Shown: one piece after another, positions 1-10,437 of the stretch
How positions within the stretch are numbered: position 1 is the first letter of the stretch
How the letters are laid out: the number at the start of each line of letters is the position of its first letter
Assembly: GCA_964637135.1 (NCBI GenBank)
Contig: CAZWTX010000001.1
Location: 62,001 to 126,000, forward strand
Source: an uncultured Methanospirillum sp.
GTDB lineage: Archaea; Halobacteriota; Methanomicrobia; Methanomicrobiales; Methanospirillaceae
DNA: 64,000 nucleotides
Direction of reading: 5' to 3'
Program-made: the position numbers and the translations under genes
The notes under the pieces: model-generated
Told to the model about the DNA's origin: nothing
The model's database searches: none
Seen by the model: the letters and a program-made list of their open reading frames with translations, nothing else

Positions 1-134
1 AGGATCGGCACCACACCGAAGATGCCGACCGCGGTTGCATAGGCTCCACCAAGGGCACAACTATACCGCGGGGCCTCGATTGCTCCAAGACCATTTTCCG
101 TGGATGGTGCTTCTGCTTCTATAGGGGGTGTCAT
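1..134 (-). CDS. Nitrogenase component-1 beta-like subunit (NifK-like, group IV), 5' fragment; continues beyond the window
   Basis: Hand translation from ATG at 134 gives MTPPIEAEAPSTENGLGAIEAPRYSCALGGAYATAVGIFGVVPI.. PRYSCALGGA corresponds to the first P-cluster Cys motif of NifK-type subunits. The start overlaps the upstream stop (TAATG). Confidence 0.8.
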   Translation of the reverse strand, partial: MTPPIEAEAPSTENGLGAIEAPRYSCALGGAYATAVGIFGVVPI

Positions 135-1687
135 TATTCTGCCTCTTTTATCAGGTAGTAGAGCGGGTCAGGCTGGGCATAGAACCACTCCTTGTAACTG
201 TCGGCGGTCTTCTCCTTGAGAGTCTTCTGGAATGCCGAACTCTTCAGGGACTGGAGCAGGAAGTTACCGTAGGCGACTGCTCCCGTGTACCCGCTCTGGG
301 TGCTCCACGGGTGCGGATCTCCTCTCAGTGCATGAATCCTGGTCATTCCCTTCTCACGCTTGTACGCTCCTCCCTGGAACGGGCAGGAGAGGGTCAGGTC
401 GGGGTCAACCTTCCGAGTGATATGTGCCTGTTCGGCAGCCTGGAAGGTATTGATCAGGAGATCGAAGTCACCGATCCGTTTCACGAGATCCTCAAGCTCC
501 TCAAGGATCAGGTTGTCATAGTCCTGGGACATGGCAGCCGGCGATGCGATCCCGAGTTCGTCGAAGTACGGGAGCTGGGCAAGGAGCCGCCCCTGTCCGA
601 GGGATCCAAGAACCGAGAGTTTTCTCCCCTTTTCCTCGGCAATCCGGTCGAACTCTGCCCTGATGGCATGAAGTTTCGGCTTCCAGGTCGCATGCTCCTC
701 GGTGATGAGGTTCTCAATCTCTACTTCCTTTCCAGTGTATTTTCCGATCTCACGAAGCCATCCGTCGGTGTTGGCAAATCCCATCGGGGACGGGTAGAGG
801 AAGAACGGAACCCCGTGCTCCTGTTCAAGGCCGCGAGAGATATAGTCGGTATAGGTCGGGCAGAGCGGTGCCGTTACGGCAGCAGATGAGAGCTGCTGGA
901 ACTGCTCGACGGTTGCAAACTCCGGAACCAGGTTTGCCCGGAGACCTACTTTTCCGAGCAGGCGCTGCACTTCCATCCGGTCCTGCCAGGTATAGGAGAG
1001 CATGCTCGCGACGTTGACCAGGTCGGGCTGTTTCTCCGTGGGCTTCTTGACCAGGTACTTCAGGATGGCATGCCAGAAGGCATCGTATCCGGTCTGGACA
1101 AGCCGGGATCTGACTCCCTCACAATGAACCGGAACCAGGGTTGATTTGATGTGGGGCTGCACATCGGCAACCACTCCTTCAATATCCTCCCCGATGATCC
1201 CGGTCGTACAGGAGGTCAGGATGAAGATTGCCTTCGGGTCATATCTCCGCTCGGCCTCAAGGATCGCCTTCTTGAGCTTGTCTCCGGCCCCGTAGACCAC
1301 GTCCTGCTCCCGCAGGTTGGTGGTCATCCAGTGCATTTCGTAATTGGCTGGTCTGCCAAACTCGACTGGAACCCCCCGGTAGAGTTCCCGGTATCCAAGG
1401 GCGGAAGAGGAACATCCAACCGGTGCATGGAAGATCGTTGCCGCATCACGGATGGTCGAGATCCGGACCGAGAGGTAGAAGTTGAGGGAACAGCCGGACG
1501 TCTGCTGAAATCCCCGTTCATGGTTCTTCAGGCAGCCGCCTTTGGCCTGCTCCACGAGCTCGCTTGCCTTTCCGTAGAAGATGTTGACTCCTCCGGCACG
1601 TTGCTCCCGGTTTGGACAGGTCGGCTGGGAAAGATCGATCTTGCGCTCGAAGTACTCCTTCTCCGCCTCTTCAGTATTTTTGTACAT
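134..1687 (-). CDS. Nitrogenase component-1 alpha-like subunit (NifD/NifE-like, group IV nitrogenase-like reductase)
   Basis: 517 aa with three P-cluster-type Cys motifs (QTSGC, HAPVGC, TSCTTGIIGEDI), a cofactor-Cys motif (PLCPTY) and a late His (RIHAL). Lies directly downstream of the nifH-like gene. Confidence 0.9.
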   Translation of the reverse strand: MYKNTEEAEKEYFERKIDLSQPTCPNREQRAGGVNIFYGKASELVEQAKGGCLKNHERGFQQTSGCSLNFYLSVRISTIRDAATIFHAPVGCSSSALGYRELYRGVPVEFGRPANYEMHWMTTNLREQDVVYGAGDKLKKAILEAERRYDPKAIFILTSCTTGIIGEDIEGVVADVQPHIKSTLVPVHCEGVRSRLVQTGYDAFWHAILKYLVKKPTEKQPDLVNVASMLSYTWQDRMEVQRLLGKVGLRANLVPEFATVEQFQQLSSAAVTAPLCPTYTDYISRGLEQEHGVPFFLYPSPMGFANTDGWLREIGKYTGKEVEIENLITEEHATWKPKLHAIRAEFDRIAEEKGRKLSVLGSLGQGRLLAQLPYFDELGIASPAAMSQDYDNLILEELEDLVKRIGDFDLLINTFQAAEQAHITRKVDPDLTLSCPFQGGAYKREKGMTRIHALRGDPHPWSTQSGYTGAVAYGNFLLQSLKSSAFQKTLKEKTADSYKEWFYAQPDPLYYLIKEAE

Positions 1688-1695
1688 GTTTGCTC

Positions 1696-2598
1696 CTATC
1701 TGGCCCTGACCGACTCGGCAGACCGGGCATTGCCCGGCTGCACGGTCAGTTCATTATCTGTCTTCGTCTCGAGCAGCCGGTCAGACCAGGACTCTGCCCA
1801 TGCCTTCAATTCATCAGCCTCGAGTGGTTTTGGTACATACCGCTCCTCATTGCCGAGAATGGTTCTCGCCAGGATCCGGTATTTCTCTGCCTGTTCGGAA
1901 TCAGGATCGTATTCTACCGCCGTCTGTCCACGCAGTTCGCTCCTCGTGATCGTGGGAGACCGCGGGATGTATCCGGCTATGGTGGTTGAGGTCTTTGCGG
2001 CAAAGTCATCGATGATCTCCCTCTGGACATCGAGGACGACAGAGTTCGCGATCACTCCTGAGAAGAGTGCCCCGCCGCTGTTTGCATACTTGCGAATCCC
2101 CTTGAAGAGATTGTTTGCCGCATATACTGCCATGAAGTCTGCTGAGGTGACCGTATAAACCTGCTCGGCAACCCCTTCACGGATCGGAACCGAGAATCCG
2201 CCACAGACAACATCCCCGAGGACGTCGTACAGGACGACATCCGGCTTAAACAGCTCGAAGACCTTCTTTTGCCTGAGCAGTTCGATAGCCGCGATGATCC
2301 CCCGGCCGGCACAGCCGACTCCGGGCTCCGGACCGCCTGCCTCGATACAGAGGACGCCGCCAAATCCTTCATGGACGATGTCCTCCACCTCTACTTTTTT
2401 GCCACTTCGTATAGCATCGAGTACGGAGGGGATGGATGCACCGCCACGGAGGTTATTTGTGGAATCACTCTTCGGGTCACAGCCGATCTGCATCACGGTC
2501 AGGCCCATATCTGCAAGGGCTGCACTGATATTGGATGTCGTAGTCGACTTTCCGATTCCGCCTTTTCCGTAGATAGCGATGTTCCTCTGTTTTGTCAT
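1696..2598 (-). CDS. nifH: Nitrogenase iron protein-like reductase (NifH family)
   Basis: YGKGGIGKST P-loop, GCDPKSDST, EAGGPEPGVGCAGRG and DVLGDVVCGGF motifs; GGAGGG RBS upstream of the ATG. Confidence 0.95.
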   Translation of the reverse strand: MTKQRNIAIYGKGGIGKSTTTSNISAALADMGLTVMQIGCDPKSDSTNNLRGGASIPSVLDAIRSGKKVEVEDIVHEGFGGVLCIEAGGPEPGVGCAGRGIIAAIELLRQKKVFELFKPDVVLYDVLGDVVCGGFSVPIREGVAEQVYTVTSADFMAVYAANNLFKGIRKYANSGGALFSGVIANSVVLDVQREIIDDFAAKTSTTIAGYIPRSPTITRSELRGQTAVEYDPDSEQAEKYRILARTILGNEERYVPKPLEADELKAWAESWSDRLLETKTDNELTVQPGNARSAESVRAR

Positions 2599-2717
2599 AA
2601 ACCCTCCAGGGTCTTACCATACATTTGTCAGCCCGGTATGGGTTATAGAGCGGTAAATGAGCAAAAAATGGCGATACTTTCTAAAAACAGAAAAGATGCG
2701 GCAATACCTGCCTCCCG

Positions 2718-3020
2718 TCAGATCAGTTCGGCACTGTCACATATCAGGATGGAAAGATTGCAGCAGTGATCAGAAAAGTCGATGAAACTCAGAAGATTTG
2801 TTGAGATCTCGGCTTTTAAGGATGGAGGGAGGTAAATGCGGATCAGGAGGAGCGGTAGATTTTCTCTCCGCTGAAGGATGACCAGATCCCGGATCTCTCC
2901 TATCAGAATCGGGAGGGTCACCCGCCGGATGATCCTGATGTGCCCGGTGTTTTCGGAATCTATCCAGCATCGGAGGGAACCGGTCCGGCTGATGATTCTA
3001 ACCCCGTCCGACCCCTCCAT
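2718..3020 (-). CDS. Hypothetical protein (100 aa)
   Basis: Starts 8 nt after the larE stop on the same strand and fills the gap toward nifH; no recognisable motif. Confidence 0.4.
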   Translation of the reverse strand: MEGSDGVRIISRTGSLRCWIDSENTGHIRIIRRVTLPILIGEIRDLVILQRRENLPLLLIRIYLPPSLKAEISTNLLSFIDFSDHCCNLSILICDSAELI

Positions 3021-3028
3021 TCAGATCC

Positions 3029-3853
3029 CTACTCTCCGATGGCTTCGTCCATGCTTCCGGGGCGGTACCCGGTGAGATCCATACTGACATAGACAAATCC
3101 GGCTGCTTTGAGTGCGCTTAGGATCTTCTCCCGATGAGCGATCACGTTCGCAAATTCTGCTGGGAGAACCTCTATCCGGGCGATATCTCCGTGATGGCGA
3201 ACCCTGACCTGGCTGAAACCGATCTGTTTCAGGTACTCTTCGGCAGTCTCGATCATCCGGAGTTTCTCTTCGGTGATGGCAGTTCCGTATGGAATCCGGG
3301 AAAAGAGGCATGCAGCCGATGGCTTGTTCCAGAATGGAATATCCAGGCTTTTTGCGATCTCCCTGATATCCTGCTTGGTGATCCCGGCCATGATGAACGG
3401 ATGAAGAACTCCACAGGAGGTGAAGGCATCAATCCCCGGTCGGTGCTCGGAAAGATCGGATGCATTTGCCCCGTCAAAAATCCCTTCTGCCCCGATCTCG
3501 GTGGCTACGTTCTGTAACGCTGGGAAGATCCCGAGTTTGCAGTGCCGGCACCGGTCATGGGGGTTCTCGGCCATAATCTCCGGGGAGAGGGGCATTGTGG
3601 TCAGGACCCTGAGAGGTAGATGATAGGTCTCTGCGATCTGCCTGGCTGCTGCTGCTTCAGTCCGGGGTACTTCCGGACCATCGAGGAAAAGGCAGACAAC
3701 CCGGTCAGATCCGATCTCCTGTTCTGCAAGGATCGCAAGAAGGCTGCTGTCCACACCGCCGGAGAATGCGACGACCACCGGGGCATGGCCCCGGATAATT
3801 CCCCTGAGTATATTCAGTTTCTCTTCGATCGCCGTTCCAGTGGTTGTCATCAT
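3029..3853 (-). CDS. larE: ATP-dependent sulfur transferase LarE (PP-loop family)
   Basis: AFSGGVDS PP-loop, CRHCK, DGANASD..RPG, PSAACLFSRIPYG and RVRHHGDIARIEV motifs; ATGA overlap with thiI. Confidence 0.92.
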   Translation of the reverse strand: MMTTTGTAIEEKLNILRGIIRGHAPVVVAFSGGVDSSLLAILAEQEIGSDRVVCLFLDGPEVPRTEAAAARQIAETYHLPLRVLTTMPLSPEIMAENPHDRCRHCKLGIFPALQNVATEIGAEGIFDGANASDLSEHRPGIDAFTSCGVLHPFIMAGITKQDIREIAKSLDIPFWNKPSAACLFSRIPYGTAITEEKLRMIETAEEYLKQIGFSQVRVRHHGDIARIEVLPAEFANVIAHREKILSALKAAGFVYVSMDLTGYRPGSMDEAIGE

Positions 3854-4971
3854 CGCTCCCTGCCTTTCAGATCTGTAACCGCTGCTTCAAGTGCTTCTGC
3901 CTTCTCAGCCGTGCAGGTGGTCGCCGGTCTGAACGGAATCGTGCAGCAGCAGGACGGGACGGGAAGGATAGATGGTTCAAAGGTGCCTATCCTGCGGGCG
4001 ATCAGGATCGTCTCCTCCTTGTCAAACCCGATCAGGGGTCGGTATACCGGCAGGGAGACCGACCGGTCTATCGCAGCGAGGTTGTCTGCGGTCTGGGATG
4101 CGACCTGCGCCAGGGATTCCCCGGTGATGATACCGTTCGCCTTCCGTTCCCTGGCGATGGTTTCAGCCGTCCGGTAGAGATGCCTTTTGCAGAGGACGCA
4201 GGAATACCGTTCCAGGTCCATCTTTCTGAGGAGCATCCGGTTCTCGTAGACGGTGCTGTCTTCGATGACGATAAGATTTATCTCCGGCTGGTATACTTTC
4301 AGCACGTCCACGAGGATCCTGACCCGTTCTTCGGAACGGTCGTCATGGAACGGATGGATCCGGATATATACCGGAATGATAAAGACCCCCCGTTTCATCA
4401 TCAGGTAGGTCGCAACCGGGGAGTCGATGCCCCCGGAGAGGAGGCTGACCATCGTTCCGGCAGATCCGCCCGGAAGTCCCCCGGGGCCGACAAACTCCTC
4501 ATGAAAGAGATACGCATTATTCTCCCTGATCTCGATCCGGAGGGTGAAGTCCGGCTCTTTCAGGTTAACCCTGAGATCCGGCCACCTTGCGCAGACAGCT
4601 GCCCCGATCTCCCCAGCAATCTCCTGGGAGGTAAAGGGATGCGTCCCCACCCGGTGGACCCGGACGGCAAAGGTCCGGACATTCCCGCATCCTGCCTCCT
4701 CTGCATACCTGACCGCATCAGGGATGAGGGTCTTGACAGTTGTTTTTCTGCACGGGGAGTACGAGGCTATCCCGAAGGTGTGTTCCAGAACATCCTTCTC
4801 CACCGCTCCGGTAATCCATATACGGCCACGCTCCCGGGTGACCATGGCATCCGGCATCCGCTTCGCAAGAGCGGTCTGGAGCATCTTCTCCCATGACCGG
4901 CGGACGGGTTCACTTTTTAAGAAGATCTCTGAATATCTGACCAGCCAGAGATCCGGTGTCATATGAGTCAT
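3850..4971 (-). CDS. thiI: tRNA 4-thiouridine synthase ThiI (methanogen type, no rhodanese domain)
   Basis: VRYSEIFLKS N-terminus, THUMP region, LLSGGIDSPVA PP-loop, CVLCKR, TGESLAQVASQT, RPLIGFDKEE and a C-terminal CCC. Confidence 0.95.
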   Translation of the reverse strand: MTHMTPDLWLVRYSEIFLKSEPVRRSWEKMLQTALAKRMPDAMVTRERGRIWITGAVEKDVLEHTFGIASYSPCRKTTVKTLIPDAVRYAEEAGCGNVRTFAVRVHRVGTHPFTSQEIAGEIGAAVCARWPDLRVNLKEPDFTLRIEIRENNAYLFHEEFVGPGGLPGGSAGTMVSLLSGGIDSPVATYLMMKRGVFIIPVYIRIHPFHDDRSEERVRILVDVLKVYQPEINLIVIEDSTVYENRMLLRKMDLERYSCVLCKRHLYRTAETIARERKANGIITGESLAQVASQTADNLAAIDRSVSLPVYRPLIGFDKEETILIARRIGTFEPSILPVPSCCCTIPFRPATTCTAEKAEALEAAVTDLKGRER

Positions 4972-4981
4972 ACAGAAGAGA

Positions 4982-5052
4982 AGCCAGCGCCCGGAATCGA
5001 ACCGGGCTTCGCTGATCTGCAGTCAGCCGCATAGCCTATCTGCCACGCTGGC
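4982..5052 (-). tRNA. tRNA-Cys (GCA)
   Basis: Reverse complement folds as a cloverleaf: acceptor GCCAGCG/CGCTGGC, anticodon arm GCTGA-CTGCAGA-TCAGC, T arm CCCGG-TTCGATT-CCGGG, discriminator U, no encoded CCA. Confidence 0.97.
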
Positions 5053-7306: not shown

Positions 7307-7651
7307 ATGATGGATCACCTGTACACCCTTCTGAAATTCATCGTCGCCGGCGGTATCATTGTGGGAGTTACCTACATCGCCCGGTATGTTGATCCAAAGT
7401 ACGGTGGGATCCTTGCCGCTGCCCCGATAACAACCACACTTGCCATTCTCTTTACATCTGTCGAGATTGGACACGAAGGAACACGGCAGCTGGTCATGGG
7501 ATCTTTTTATTTTGCCCTGCCATCGCTTGTCTTCCTCCTGGCACTCTTTCTCCTGATGGGCAGACTCTCCCTTCTCCCTGCCATCGGACTATCATATCTG
7601 GTCTGGCTTACCGGGGTTATCCTCATGCAGCGCTTTATCGCAAATTTTTAA
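7307..7651 (+). CDS. Small four-TM membrane protein (DUF3147/GlpM-like)
   Basis: 114 aa, four hydrophobic segments, KF..GG and GGILAAAP motifs. Confidence 0.75.
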   Translation: MMDHLYTLLKFIVAGGIIVGVTYIARYVDPKYGGILAAAPITTTLAILFTSVEIGHEGTRQLVMGSFYFALPSLVFLLALFLLMGRLSLLPAIGLSYLVWLTGVILMQRFIANF

Positions 7652-8454
7652 TCAGGATATTCCCCGCCAGGTATATCCTGTTCGCCTGCCCGCTCACCGA
7701 TGTCTGTTCTGAGCAGGTCTGAAATTTCACTGATTCTGTTTGAACAGGCTTCACCGGCCAGGTGCCTCGGGTGGCTCTCCTTAACCTGGATTTCTGCCCT
7801 GATGATCGCCGGTCTCGGGGAGAGGATGAGTATCCTATCGGCGAGGTATACTGCTTCCTCGGGGTTATGGGTGACAACAAGGAACGTGGTATCCAGATGA
7901 TCACGAATTCGGAGTACCTCATCCTGGAGTTCCCGCCGGGCCACAGGATCAAGGGCACTGAACGGTTCATCCATCAAAAGCACGTCAGGTTCGATGGCAA
8001 GCGCCCGGGCAACCGCAACCCGTTGTTTCATCCCTCCGGAGAGCTGGTGGGGATAGGCGTGTGCAAATTCTTCCATATGCACAAGAGAGAGCAGTCCGGT
8101 TATCTTCTCCGCCGTTCTATCAACCGGTTTTCTCCTGATCTTCATGTTCAGGCCATATGCAATATTCTCTGCAACCGTGAGCCAGGGAAAAAGCCCGTGT
8201 TCCTGGAAAACCATTGCAGTACTGATGGGTAACGAACGTGTTCCACCCCCGGAGACGATACCACAGTCCGCAGATTCAAGCCCGGCAAGAATTCGCAGAA
8301 CGGTCGATTTCCCACATCCTGACGGACCCATCAGGCAGACGATCTCCCGCTTCCCGATCGTACAGGAGATATCCCTGATGGCTTTCACCGAACCCTGCTC
8401 GCTGGTGAACTCCTTTGAGATACCCTCAAGGACGAGTGCTGCATCCATGCTCAT
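7648..8454 (-). CDS. ABC transporter ATP-binding protein (nitrate/sulfonate/taurine family)
   Basis: GPSGCGKST, VFQEHGLFPWLTV, YPHQLSGGMKQR and LLMDEPFSALD motifs. Confidence 0.95.
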   Translation of the reverse strand: MSMDAALVLEGISKEFTSEQGSVKAIRDISCTIGKREIVCLMGPSGCGKSTVLRILAGLESADCGIVSGGGTRSLPISTAMVFQEHGLFPWLTVAENIAYGLNMKIRRKPVDRTAEKITGLLSLVHMEEFAHAYPHQLSGGMKQRVAVARALAIEPDVLLMDEPFSALDPVARRELQDEVLRIRDHLDTTFLVVTHNPEEAVYLADRILILSPRPAIIRAEIQVKESHPRHLAGEACSNRISEISDLLRTDIGERAGEQDIPGGEYPD

Positions 8455-8467
8455 CGTGAACCTCCGG

Positions 8468-9238
8468 TCATTCCTTTCCCTGCCAGGAGAAGAGTCTGGC
8501 CTGGCCGAGCCTGAAGAGATAATCTGACACTATTCCGATGATCCCGATCATAATCATCCCTGCAACGATCACCTGGATCTGCCCGAGATTGTAGGCAAAC
8601 ATGATCAGGTACCCAAGTCCGGCACTTGTTCCGGGGAGCATCTCGGCAGCCACGACACACATCCATGCAACCCCGAATGCCAGGCGGAACCCGGTCCATA
8701 CTGCCGGAAGAGCCCCGGGGATGACCACCGTCTGGAACGTCTCCCCGGTTGTTGCCCCGAGCGACCGGGCAACATCCAGCCAGCTGGCCCTGACACTCCT
8801 GACACCCTCGATCGTACTGATCAGGATCGGGAAGAACGAACCGATCAGGATGATAAAGATGATCGAACCGAACCCGATCTTGAACCAGGCGATGGCGAGC
8901 GGCATCCATGCAATCGGTGGGACGGGTCTCAGGATCTGGATAAGCGGGTTCACATACTCCTCGGCATTCTTCGACCAACCGCACAGCAGCCCTGCCGGTA
9001 CGGCGATGATTACCGCCAGGACGAACCCGGTGAGTACCCGCTCCAGGCTGATAACCGCATTTTCGGTGAGTGATGCTCCCCCGAAGAGTGATACCTCCGG
9101 GTGAAGGAGCACCGGGAGAATCTCTTCCCACCCGGGGAGGATGAAACTGTTGTTCACCTGAATCGAGACTATCTGCCAGATGATGAGAACCAGTACCGGC
9201 AGAGCCAGTCCCTTGATGATCCTCCGGGGAAGAATCAT
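8468..9238 (-). CDS. ABC transporter permease (SsuC/TauC-like)
   Basis: SLERVLTGF, LRPVPPIAWMPLAIAWF, ARSLGA (EAA loop) and AWMCVVAAEM..GLGYLI motifs. Confidence 0.95.
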   Translation of the reverse strand: MILPRRIIKGLALPVLVLIIWQIVSIQVNNSFILPGWEEILPVLLHPEVSLFGGASLTENAVISLERVLTGFVLAVIIAVPAGLLCGWSKNAEEYVNPLIQILRPVPPIAWMPLAIAWFKIGFGSIIFIILIGSFFPILISTIEGVRSVRASWLDVARSLGATTGETFQTVVIPGALPAVWTGFRLAFGVAWMCVVAAEMLPGTSAGLGYLIMFAYNLGQIQVIVAGMIMIGIIGIVSDYLFRLGQARLFSWQGKE

Positions 9239-10437
9239 TGTACCACCCGGTCAGGAAGGCCGTATAGTGATGCGTGTATTCCTTCGTACATAAGTGCCTC
9301 GCGGATGATCTCTTCCTGGATGGAACTCTGCGGAATGGCCAGAATGACCGGCCTGTTCTGGGCGGAACGGTTCCGTGTCCAGGTGATAAATTCATCCCAG
9401 TTCTCACAGGGTGCCTCCTCGTCCACGACAAGACCGGTGCCACCGTCATTTATTGAATGAATGATGGAGGCATTGTTTCCGAGGGCAATCTGCATCTCTG
9501 CCGGGACACTTCCCAGGTACCCGACATCGATCGCCTCCTGTCCGATCCCGGTCATGATCCCCCCGCCAACCTGCCCGGGGAGGAGATGGACCCGTGCAAT
9601 GGTCCGGTTTTCAACGACCAGATCACACCAGTCAGGACGGAGCTGCTGGCCAGCCTCCGGAACCAGTGCAAATCCGTATGTGCTGTATATAAGCTCATGA
9701 TCAGTTATTGCAAGATAAAACGGGGCATTGTGATCACTTGACGGAAGATATCCGATCTCTATCACCGGACAGTCATCGGAGAGATTCGGCGGTGAACCGG
9801 CAAGCAGTTCATCTGCCCGAAGCGATACCGATCGGTTCATGAACGATTCCGGATCGGTTTCAGTATCCTCAGTGGTGTTGAGACCGGAGATGAAACCGGG
9901 AAGGTCCGATACCCCGGTGAAGTTGATACTCTGGAATGCCAGTTCTTCCACGTCACGGGGATTGAGAGAGAGGCCGGCTGATCGAATCGGTCCTGACCCG
10001 AAGACCCAGGATGCCGTGACGGTGATCGCATGGTCGCGGTCCTCGTTTGTCCTGGCGATACCGGCCTTCGTTATAGCAGAGATCAATGCGGCAATATCCG
10101 GGTACTCTTCGATGAATGCATTTCGCATGACAACGACACAACACGCAGAGGTATTCCATGCTCCCGGCGGGGGCATATCTGCCGGGGAGGCAATCTGCTT
10201 TCCAATCCCACCGAGTTCGGCGGTGGCAACAACCGGTTCCCATATGAGAAACGCATCCACCTGGCTGGTATTGAGCAGTTGCGGCATTATCCCTGCAGAG
10301 GCATAGACCAGAAGTATTTCAGGGGATTCATCCCCTGGAGCTTCACCACTCATCTCTCCCGGGTCCAAAAGACCAGTGAAGAACAGGATAAGAATAAAAC
10401 AGATTCCTGCGCCGCCAATTAGAAGGGAGAGTCTCAT
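9235..10437 (-). CDS. ABC transporter substrate-binding protein (SsuA/TauA-like), apparently circularly permuted
   Basis: N-terminal membrane anchor; DAFLIWEP and CCVVV motifs, then IGYLPSSDH, IDVGYLG and SSIQ motifs; ATGA-coupled to the permease. Confidence 0.85.
   Translation of the reverse strand: MRLSLLIGGAGICFILILFFTGLLDPGEMSGEAPGDESPEILLVYASAGIMPQLLNTSQVDAFLIWEPVVATAELGGIGKQIASPADMPPPGAWNTSACCVVVMRNAFIEEYPDIAALISAITKAGIARTNEDRDHAITVTASWVFGSGPIRSAGLSLNPRDVEELAFQSINFTGVSDLPGFISGLNTTEDTETDPESFMNRSVSLRADELLAGSPPNLSDDCPVIEIGYLPSSDHNAPFYLAITDHELIYSTYGFALVPEAGQQLRPDWCDLVVENRTIARVHLLPGQVGGGIMTGIGQEAIDVGYLGSVPAEMQIALGNNASIIHSINDGGTGLVVDEEAPCENWDEFITWTRNRSAQNRPVILAIPQSSIQEEIIREALMYEGIHASLYGLPDRVVQ

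Follow-up and report, generated by a model that had tools for sequence, protein, structure and literature searches.

A Group IV nitrogenase-like operon of a Methanospirillum genome and its possible role in organosulfur use

What reaction is carried out by nitrogenase-like genes that lie outside the nif operon of a methanogen? The question is raised by an operon, here called nflHDK, at the left end of a 64,000-nucleotide stretch of DNA from an uncultured Methanospirillum sp. (assembly GCA_964637135.1; 2.8 Mb, 98% complete). This stretch, the window, is C1:62001-126000 (contig CAZWTX010000001.1), and positions given without a contig refer to it. All three genes lie on the minus strand and have intact reading frames. 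nflH (1696..2598) encodes a 300-amino-acid, ATP-driven reductase of the Fe-protein type with a GKGGIGKS P-loop and Cys96 and Cys132; nflD (134..1687) encodes a 517-residue alpha subunit; and nflK, of which the 5′ end occupies 1..134, encodes a beta subunit of 450 residues and ends at C1:60782, left of the window. The nflK ATG overlaps the nflD stop codon (TAATG), and nflH and nflD are 8 nt apart, a gap that is too short to hold a nifI gene and contains none. A preliminary description made from the sequence alone had read these three genes, their coupling, and their spacing in the same way, and DNA contigs from three other wastewater and digester studies match at 99% and span both gene junctions. 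Judging from sequence and gene context, we consider it probable that nfl is a two-component reductase that cleaves the C–S bond of an imported, non-volatile organosulfur compound to obtain sulfur, such compounds being the candidate substrate class.

Position among nitrogenase-like enzymes and cofactor ligands

The operon is distinct from nif, nifEN, and cfbCD, as the preliminary description had concluded. When H, D, and K were scored against nif, vnf, anf, cfb, and bch models, no protein passed a family cut-off: nflH reached 386 bits with the nifH model (cut-off 394) and 348 bits with the CfbC model (cut-off 402), and nflD reached 124 bits with nifD (cut-off 654) and 122 bits with nifE (cut-off 505). 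In the phylogenies with reference sequences that the same description had proposed, nflH falls outside NifH and CfbC, nflD is neither within NifD nor grouped with NifE, nflK is not within NifK, and nflD does not join CfbD. Model scores and trees together rule out a nif, nifEN, or cfbCD identity. CfbCD (IV-B, F430 synthesis) is likewise a nitrogenase fold in a methanogen, but CfbD is a homomeric protein of 354 residues with no K partner and the genome carries its own cfbC and cfbD on contig C3, which excludes this identity for nflD. The true nif operon, nifH-I1-I2-D-K-E-N, is separate, on contig C32. The sequence left of the window had been named as a place to look for nifB or marB; neither adjoins the operon, and the single nifB lies on C3. 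The preliminary description had also cited the lack of an NrpR box (GGAA-N6-TTCC) upstream of nflH. No such box was found there at up to one mismatch, but the argument drawn from it fails, because a perfect box is also absent before the true nifH, glnA, and both amt genes, which makes its absence uninformative.

The closest characterized relative is methylthio-alkane reductase (MAR), so that part of the earlier proposal of a MarHDK-related Group IV reductase stands. The best Protein Data Bank matches of D and K are 9FMG and 9D9U, the R. rubrum MAR (E 4.5e-68 for D and 3.6e-87 for K), NifD follows for D at E 1.4e-27, and the predicted D structure, whose mean predicted local distance difference test score (pLDDT) is 66, ranked 9FMG first by Foldseek and VIA. 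A closer tie to MAR than to other Group IV subgroups does not follow. In an IQ-TREE quick analysis of 52 D rows with NifD, NifE, and AnfD as outgroup, nflD falls in its own 13-row clade (SH-like approximate likelihood ratio test 99; 14 rows with P0123, 95). This clade is sister to a clade of IV-A, IV-C, IV-D, and IV-E proxies (support 100), a placement no nearer to MAR than to IV-A, D, or E; a 92-row FastTree analysis, with 35 low-scoring rows omitted, agrees. Proxies of IV-F type lie outside, in a set that matches the Geobacter sp. Red53 row and is without IsrD and other IV-F rows. The IV-C (MAR) proxies (L163, L164, P0137) were picked by motifs from the 9FMG chain, and those of IV-A, D, E, and F were labeled by eye from N-termini in the accessible part of mBio Table S1 (PMC13753814). 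A topology forcing the nflD clade together with MAR was rejected when put to the approximately unbiased test (p-AU 9e-44), and identity to the MAR proxies is about 33%, not above that to the IV-A, D, or F proxies. nflD also lies outside the IV-A, IV-D, and IV-E proxies and lacks their loop-I Arg-His. Nfa of Endomicrobium proavitum (IV-A), in the sister group, shares with nfl the six P-cluster cysteines and the cofactor cysteine, whereas IV-A has the loop-I Arg-His and a conserved Trp, at 32–34% identity of its proxies to nflD. In a K tree built without MarK, nflK forms its own clade (support 98). By its sequence, nfl is a Group IV nitrogenase-like HDK system in the broad sense, outside Groups I–III and V, with the P-cluster cysteines and the cofactor cysteine kept.

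The label "orphan" in the preliminary description does not hold, since scoring of 8,000 candidates yielded 345 relatives of D, spread over methanogens and some bacteria, with 65–80% identity for the top 120. Sixty-eight of 77 named loci are archaeal (Methanobacteriales 34, Methanomicrobiales 13, Methanosarcinales 13, others 8) and nine are bacterial. Two of the nine, L053 and L062, are probably mis-binned from Methanosarcina: these contigs, labeled Acidobacteriota and Planctomycetota, carry D genes and promoters near-identical to those of Methanosarcina. Cultured carriers are Methanospirillum lacunae, Methanoculleus palmolei, Methanosarcina hadiensis, Sporomusa aerivorans, and Geotalea toluenoxydans. 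The clade D has a patchy distribution, of the kind that fits an accessory function: it is matched in 19 of 401 genomes of the order (one of these hits lies in another clade) and in 10 of the 301 phylum genomes, at up to three copies per genome. Archaeal Group IV DK sequences have already been placed in trees, in the available text of a study that describes MAR as known only in bacteria (PMC9447857), and the nflD clade may already be a leaf of the File S1 tree of PMC13753814 under some label. Our literature search, outside the scope of which were subscription papers, found no description of the nfl clade, its loop-II His, or its upstream element.

Residue conservation in D was counted over the query together with 119 homologues, 120 sequences in all. 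The P-cluster cysteines of D (Cys66 in 119 of 120; Cys92 and Cys160 in all) and of K (Cys26, Cys51, and Cys116 in 74/74) make up the full set of six. The invariant Cys276 (120/120), in the motif PLCPTY, occupies the position of MAR Cys270, a ligand of the mar2 cluster. Of the alpha-subunit ligands named in the preliminary description, the three P-cluster cysteines and Cys276 were upheld; the chosen His, His452 in RIHAL (120/120), is not a MAR ligand and aligns instead with the loop-II His442 of NifD, by both MAFFT and hhalign, although NifD has a longer segment ahead of its His and the structural model is unreliable in this region. Among 92 full-length representatives at 50% clustering and the locus proteins, this loop-II His pattern occurs only in the nfl clade and NifD.

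The segment GVRSRLVQTGYD of nflD aligns without gaps to GVSQSAGHH of NifD and replaces Gln191 with Val197 and His195 with Tyr201, a loss noted at the outset. The pocket is remodeled, as had been anticipated: six residues of the MAR pocket (as described in the accessible part of PMC12552129) are replaced in nflD, His194 by Leu196, Trp195 by Val197, Phe199 by Tyr201, His375 by Asp389, and Arg428-His429 by the clade-specific Cys435-Pro436 of loop I (Cys435 in 118/120). hhalign gaps the loop-I stretch differently and still places no Arg-His there. R. rubrum MarBHDK otherwise shares with nfl the HDK architecture, the six P-cluster cysteines, an N-terminal REQR motif, the loss of Gln191 and His195, and a sulfur gene context; nfl differs in having no adjacent marB and in being mostly archaeal.

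Compared with Mo-nitrogenase NifHDK (Groups I–III), nfl shares the P-cluster ligands and the cofactor cysteine (Cys275 of NifD) and has a His that aligns with His442. It also keeps what we take to be Arg96 and Arg359 of NifD (Arg100, 117/120, and Arg367, 120/120), as well as Val70 (Val74, 99/120); an equivalent of Arg359 is also kept in F-type clades. nfl differs from NifHDK in its 22–27% identity, in lacking Gln191, His195, and Gly424, and in an operon without nifI and nifEN. Arg75, 195, 367, 444, 450, and 455 of nflD vary little or not at all, which points to a possible anion-binding site.

A loop-II His is said to be absent from Group IV in the portion of PMC13474568 available to us, and PMC12552129, as far as its accessible text goes, could not assign a His ligand to the ancestor of MAR and nitrogenase, since the two use different loops. 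A clade that is sister to the group containing MAR yet appears to keep the nitrogenase loop bears directly on this question.

Sulfur genes and a two-box upstream element

The operon lies among sulfur genes. On its left side, C1:27-67 kb contains cysE-cysK, fdhD paired with the gene of a sufS-type desulfurase, sepCysS-metY-metX, another cysK that faces cysS, DUF1890/1894, and the gene of a small winged-helix protein; beyond nflH on the right follow a gene for an ATP-dependent sulfur transferase of the larE family (3029..3853, minus strand) and the tRNA sulfurtransferase gene thiI (3850..4971, minus strand). The closest named relatives, Methanospirillum records with D 80–82% identical, share the order thiI-larE-small gene-H-D-K. 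Of the 48 related loci that span 12 kb or more, metY, cysK, cysE, metX, or sepCysS is present in 26, and a sulfur gene of any kind or an NMT1-type binding protein in 37. The commonest neighbor is metY (22 of 78 loci, the one studied here included); nifX-like genes occur in 14/77. The labels cysK, cysS, larE, thiI, SepCysS-family, and NMT1 come from hidden Markov model matches, and metY, metX, cysE, nifX, nifS, moaD, and thiF are our own readings of the sequences.

Upstream of nflH lies a two-box element, a candidate operator (2658..2712, minus strand), with box A GGCAGGTATTGCCGCA (TTGCCGCA at 2704-2697) and box B GCCATTTTTTGCTC (2672-2659). It reads TTGCCGCA…TTGCT with a TTGC-to-TTGC spacing of 39, and a TATA-like hexamer, CTATAA (2643..2648, minus strand), lies about 10 nt past box B as a putative promoter. 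The Methanomicrobia consensus upstream of H is GGCAATTATTGCCGCA and GCAATTATTGCTG, with a TTGC-to-TTGC distance of 39–42 nt, followed after about 10 nt by a TATA-like stretch. For training, 21 upstream regions were examined and four to five poor fits dropped (L066, L067, L075, L112, and later L079). With its own sequence left out of training, the nflH site scores 35.2 bits and the next best site of the genome 22.1; five column-permuted matrices peak at 18–23 bits. When the genome's 1,969 genes are ranked, the nflH promoter comes first. The divergent promoter between cysK and cysS reaches 21.7 bits (cysK at rank 3) and that of an NMT1-type binding protein and thiF 18.0, against a 99th percentile of 14.8, while nifH (6.7), nifB (2.7), glnA (5.7), amt (4.8 and 0.4), and cfbC (below 7) score low.

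At a threshold of at least 18 bits, the element precedes 13 of 25 untrained D/K unit starts in Methanomicrobia, 2/4 untrained H starts, and 5/17 NMT1/ABC (ATP-binding cassette) starts, compared with 8 of 198 starts of other genes. Five genomes mapped in detail carry it at every unit that begins with an H or D of the clade, including all three D copies of G017, and also before an H-D-K set of another clade, the small gene of 100 codons described below, binding proteins, and a corrinoid methyltransferase cluster. It is a real element and the mark of a module of nitrogenase-like and uptake genes. From it a short list of putatively co-regulated importers can be drawn up, and their ligands can point to the substrate. 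What appears to be new here is the two-box element that ranks first in the genome, the unusual ligand set, and a candidate regulon.

Proposed function and its alternatives

How could these features combine into a function? The organosulfur reductase that we favor would work as follows. The H2 dimer would pass electrons, driven by ATP, to the P-cluster between D and K. D would hold an [8Fe-9S-C]-type cluster made by NifB, presumably supplied by the stand-alone nifB of the genome, with Cys276 as one ligand and, at the far end, His452 (a nitrogenase-type loop II) or Cys435. The pocket would favor an anionic substrate, since six positions are invariant or nearly invariant Arg/Lys and His194, Trp195, and His375 of MAR are gone; a sulfonate or a methylthio-acid, imported by NMT1/SsuA-type ABC importers, would be examples. 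The freed sulfide, sulfite, or thiol would be taken up by CysK, MetY, and SepCysS and end in cysteine and methionine, and the two-box element would turn on operon and importers under sulfur shortage or when substrate is present. Group IV genes are reported to sit with sulfur genes, and MAR and Isr to cleave C–S bonds for sulfur (accessible parts of PMC13753814, PMC13474568, and PMC11423573). IsrBHDK of Rhodobacter capsulatus (IV-F) offers a precedent, in which an imported sulfonate is cleaved and ssu/tau ABC genes and cysE/cysK stand alongside; nfl differs in keeping six P-cluster cysteines and Cys276, whereas IsrDK, in the available portion of PMC13474568, keeps four and has no Cys270/His429 pair. 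By analogy, nfl would resemble MAR and Isr in architecture and purpose, yet it groups apart from MAR. The possible organosulfur role suggested by the preliminary description is supported as far as a likely role in sulfur metabolism goes.

Several observations weigh against this proposal. First, counted from the preceding Gly, His452 stands two residues earlier than His442, and the D model has low confidence around the pocket (pLDDT under 50 for residues 267-293 and 436-454 in addition to the low mean), for which reasons His452, Cys435, or both may bind the cluster. Second, nifB is adjacent in just 5/77 loci, and the counts of sulfur genes at related loci stand without a genome-wide background. 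Third, ABC importers do not prove a non-volatile substrate, because sulfonate-type ABC genes also flank true MAR loci (accessible part of bioRxiv 10.64898/2026.08.20.746119). Finally, that the element senses sulfur status is something we infer and can put no more firmly, because it precedes 0/16 sulfur-biosynthesis unit starts in related Methanomicrobia loci, because three non-sulfur promoter regions of the genome score 20.5–22.4 bits, and because the margin narrows to 28.7 versus 25.7 bits, with the nflH site still first, when Methanospirillum is left out of training (nine sites). No element at 15 bits or more precedes the genome's own metY or occurs across C1:27-47 kb, and Methanobacteria loci with the enzyme have it at 1/251 starts.

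A wider claim is possible but distinctly more tentative. It holds that nfl is an unnamed, methanogen-rich Group IV clade with a nitrogenase-type 8-Fe cluster on a loop-II His, perhaps together with an additional Cys, in place of the MAR loop, and so intermediate between MAR and nitrogenase; that it is the first archaeal nitrogenase-like enzyme known to cleave C–S bonds; and that it forms the core of an undescribed Methanomicrobia sulfur regulon with a two-box operator. Methanogens are thought to depend mostly on sulfide. If the claim is true, an organosulfur-mining reductase would be an added sulfur route, possibly with a gas by-product, in digesters, peat, and guts. Reviews, in the parts accessible to us, name the uncharacterized Group IV clades as a main open problem; MAR and Isr are known from bacteria only.

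The alternative that survives best, although we regard it as unlikely, is that nfl has MAR function with a differently built pocket and converts dimethyl sulfide, ethyl methyl sulfide, or methylthioethanol to methanethiol and a hydrocarbon gas. MAR is the top structural match of both subunits, metY is the commonest neighbor, and in loci of the Methanoculleus type the element also precedes corrinoid methyltransferase clusters that have been proposed to act on methyl-sulfur compounds (accessible text of PMC10418091). The rejected joint clade, the replacement of all six pocket residues, and the unremarkable identity to MAR proxies speak against it, as does the mBio screen, which assayed bacterial systems only and in whose available part MAR activity is confined to IV-C with one IV-A exception on dimethyl sulfide (PMC13753814). 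Because D is no nearer MAR than IV-A, D, or E and a joint clade is rejected, the gas assay with dimethyl sulfide or methylthioethanol suggested in the preliminary description would probably be negative.

Two further explanations seem improbable. Reduction of an inorganic or selenium oxyanion, such as thiosulfate or a selenium analogue, in place of C–S cleavage would suit the Arg-rich pocket, importers of the NMT1/SsuA/NitT family that carry small anions, and the persulfide and sulfur-carrier genes that often adjoin (sufS, thiF-moaD, larE, thiI), but both characterized sulfur-acting Group IV enzymes cleave C–S bonds (accessible part of PMC13474568), and no direct sign of an inorganic substrate emerged here. 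A poor chance also has to be given to a NifEN-like, non-catalytic DK that would scaffold or carry a NifB-type cluster for another enzyme. Tandem DK-DK pairs at several loci (L068, L076, L078, L103), the retained NifD/NifE-type Arg96 and loop-II His, and the use of L-type clusters elsewhere in methanogens (available portion of PMC13474568) would fit such a scaffold; it is opposed by the full set of P-cluster cysteines, by a D that does not group with NifE, by an upstream element common to DK and importers, and by an operon that here and in most relatives has a sole DK pair with its own H. That nfl is a weak alternative nitrogenase comparable to Endomicrobium Nfa, or reduces another nitrogen compound, is highly improbable: nflD retains a larger part of the first shell of nitrogenase than MAR does (Arg96, Val70, Cys275, Arg359, and a His442-like residue), but it has lost Gln191 and His195 and lies outside IV-A, its neighbors are sulfur genes, its element is not common to nif, glnA, or amt, and the genome already has a full nif operon.

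Accompanying genes and further nitrogenase-like loci

Between nflH and larE lies a small conserved gene (2718..3020, minus strand; 100 residues) with no Pfam family and no Atlas match at 0.8 or above. It accompanies the element and its ABC importers and not the enzyme alone: among 201 genomes of the order, 21 have it, including each of the 11 that are D-positive apart from the present one, and it also stands in element-bearing ABC operons of D-negative genomes. The small winged-helix gene (C1:60176-60460, plus strand; L001:13176-13460) is convergent with nflK and has no in-frame ATG, GTG, or TTG; its relatives keep GGG-ATC-GTT-TTT at the start, which suggests an ATC start codon. This subfamily adjoins the element, the 100-residue gene, and NMT1 importers in many Methanomicrobiales and is a candidate reader of the element. 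Under the element and beside the HDK operon, L217 (G033), L048, and L049 carry a cluster of the mlp type with a RACo activator, a corrinoid protein, a UROD-type methyltransferase, and DUF1847. A NitT/SsuA-type ABC importer in the window (7648-10437, minus strand), 5 kb from the operon, lacks the element. A DUF1890-DUF1894 pair (C1:59176-60029, plus strand) beside the operon recurs in G405 and G033, within their sulfur islands.

The genome has three tRNA-Cys genes, all of them within 17.3 kb around the operon (C1:49.7-67.1 kb), at C1:49767-49837, C1:54136-54210, and 4982..5052 of the window (GCA anticodon, minus strand); the arrangement of larE and its surroundings is kept in Methanospirillum relatives. 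cysS and sepCysS lie close to this cluster, and both routes to Cys-tRNA are present.

Beyond the nfl and nif operons, the genome has another nifD(end)-nifK copy, located on the short contig C113 (1-1749) and either a paralogue or binning contamination, and a further, divergent nitrogenase-like system, whose H gene (C97:1835-2499) comes right behind an ABC transporter of the iron/B12 type and whose D-K pair is on a separate short contig (C110:1-1941). More unnamed methanogen D clades fall outside the IV-A to IV-F proxies (L032, L037, L068:4682-6145, L076:5371-6864, L078:18365-19831, L154:3814-5274); they often stand in tandem with the nflD clade, and one of their H-D-K sets has the upstream element. 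In L214 (G017), a gene of the AnfO family directly follows one D-K copy of the nfl clade. The bacteria G401 (L058) and G403 (L103) hold many DK pairs of different clades in a single island, with 22 and 17 PF00148 matches, respectively.

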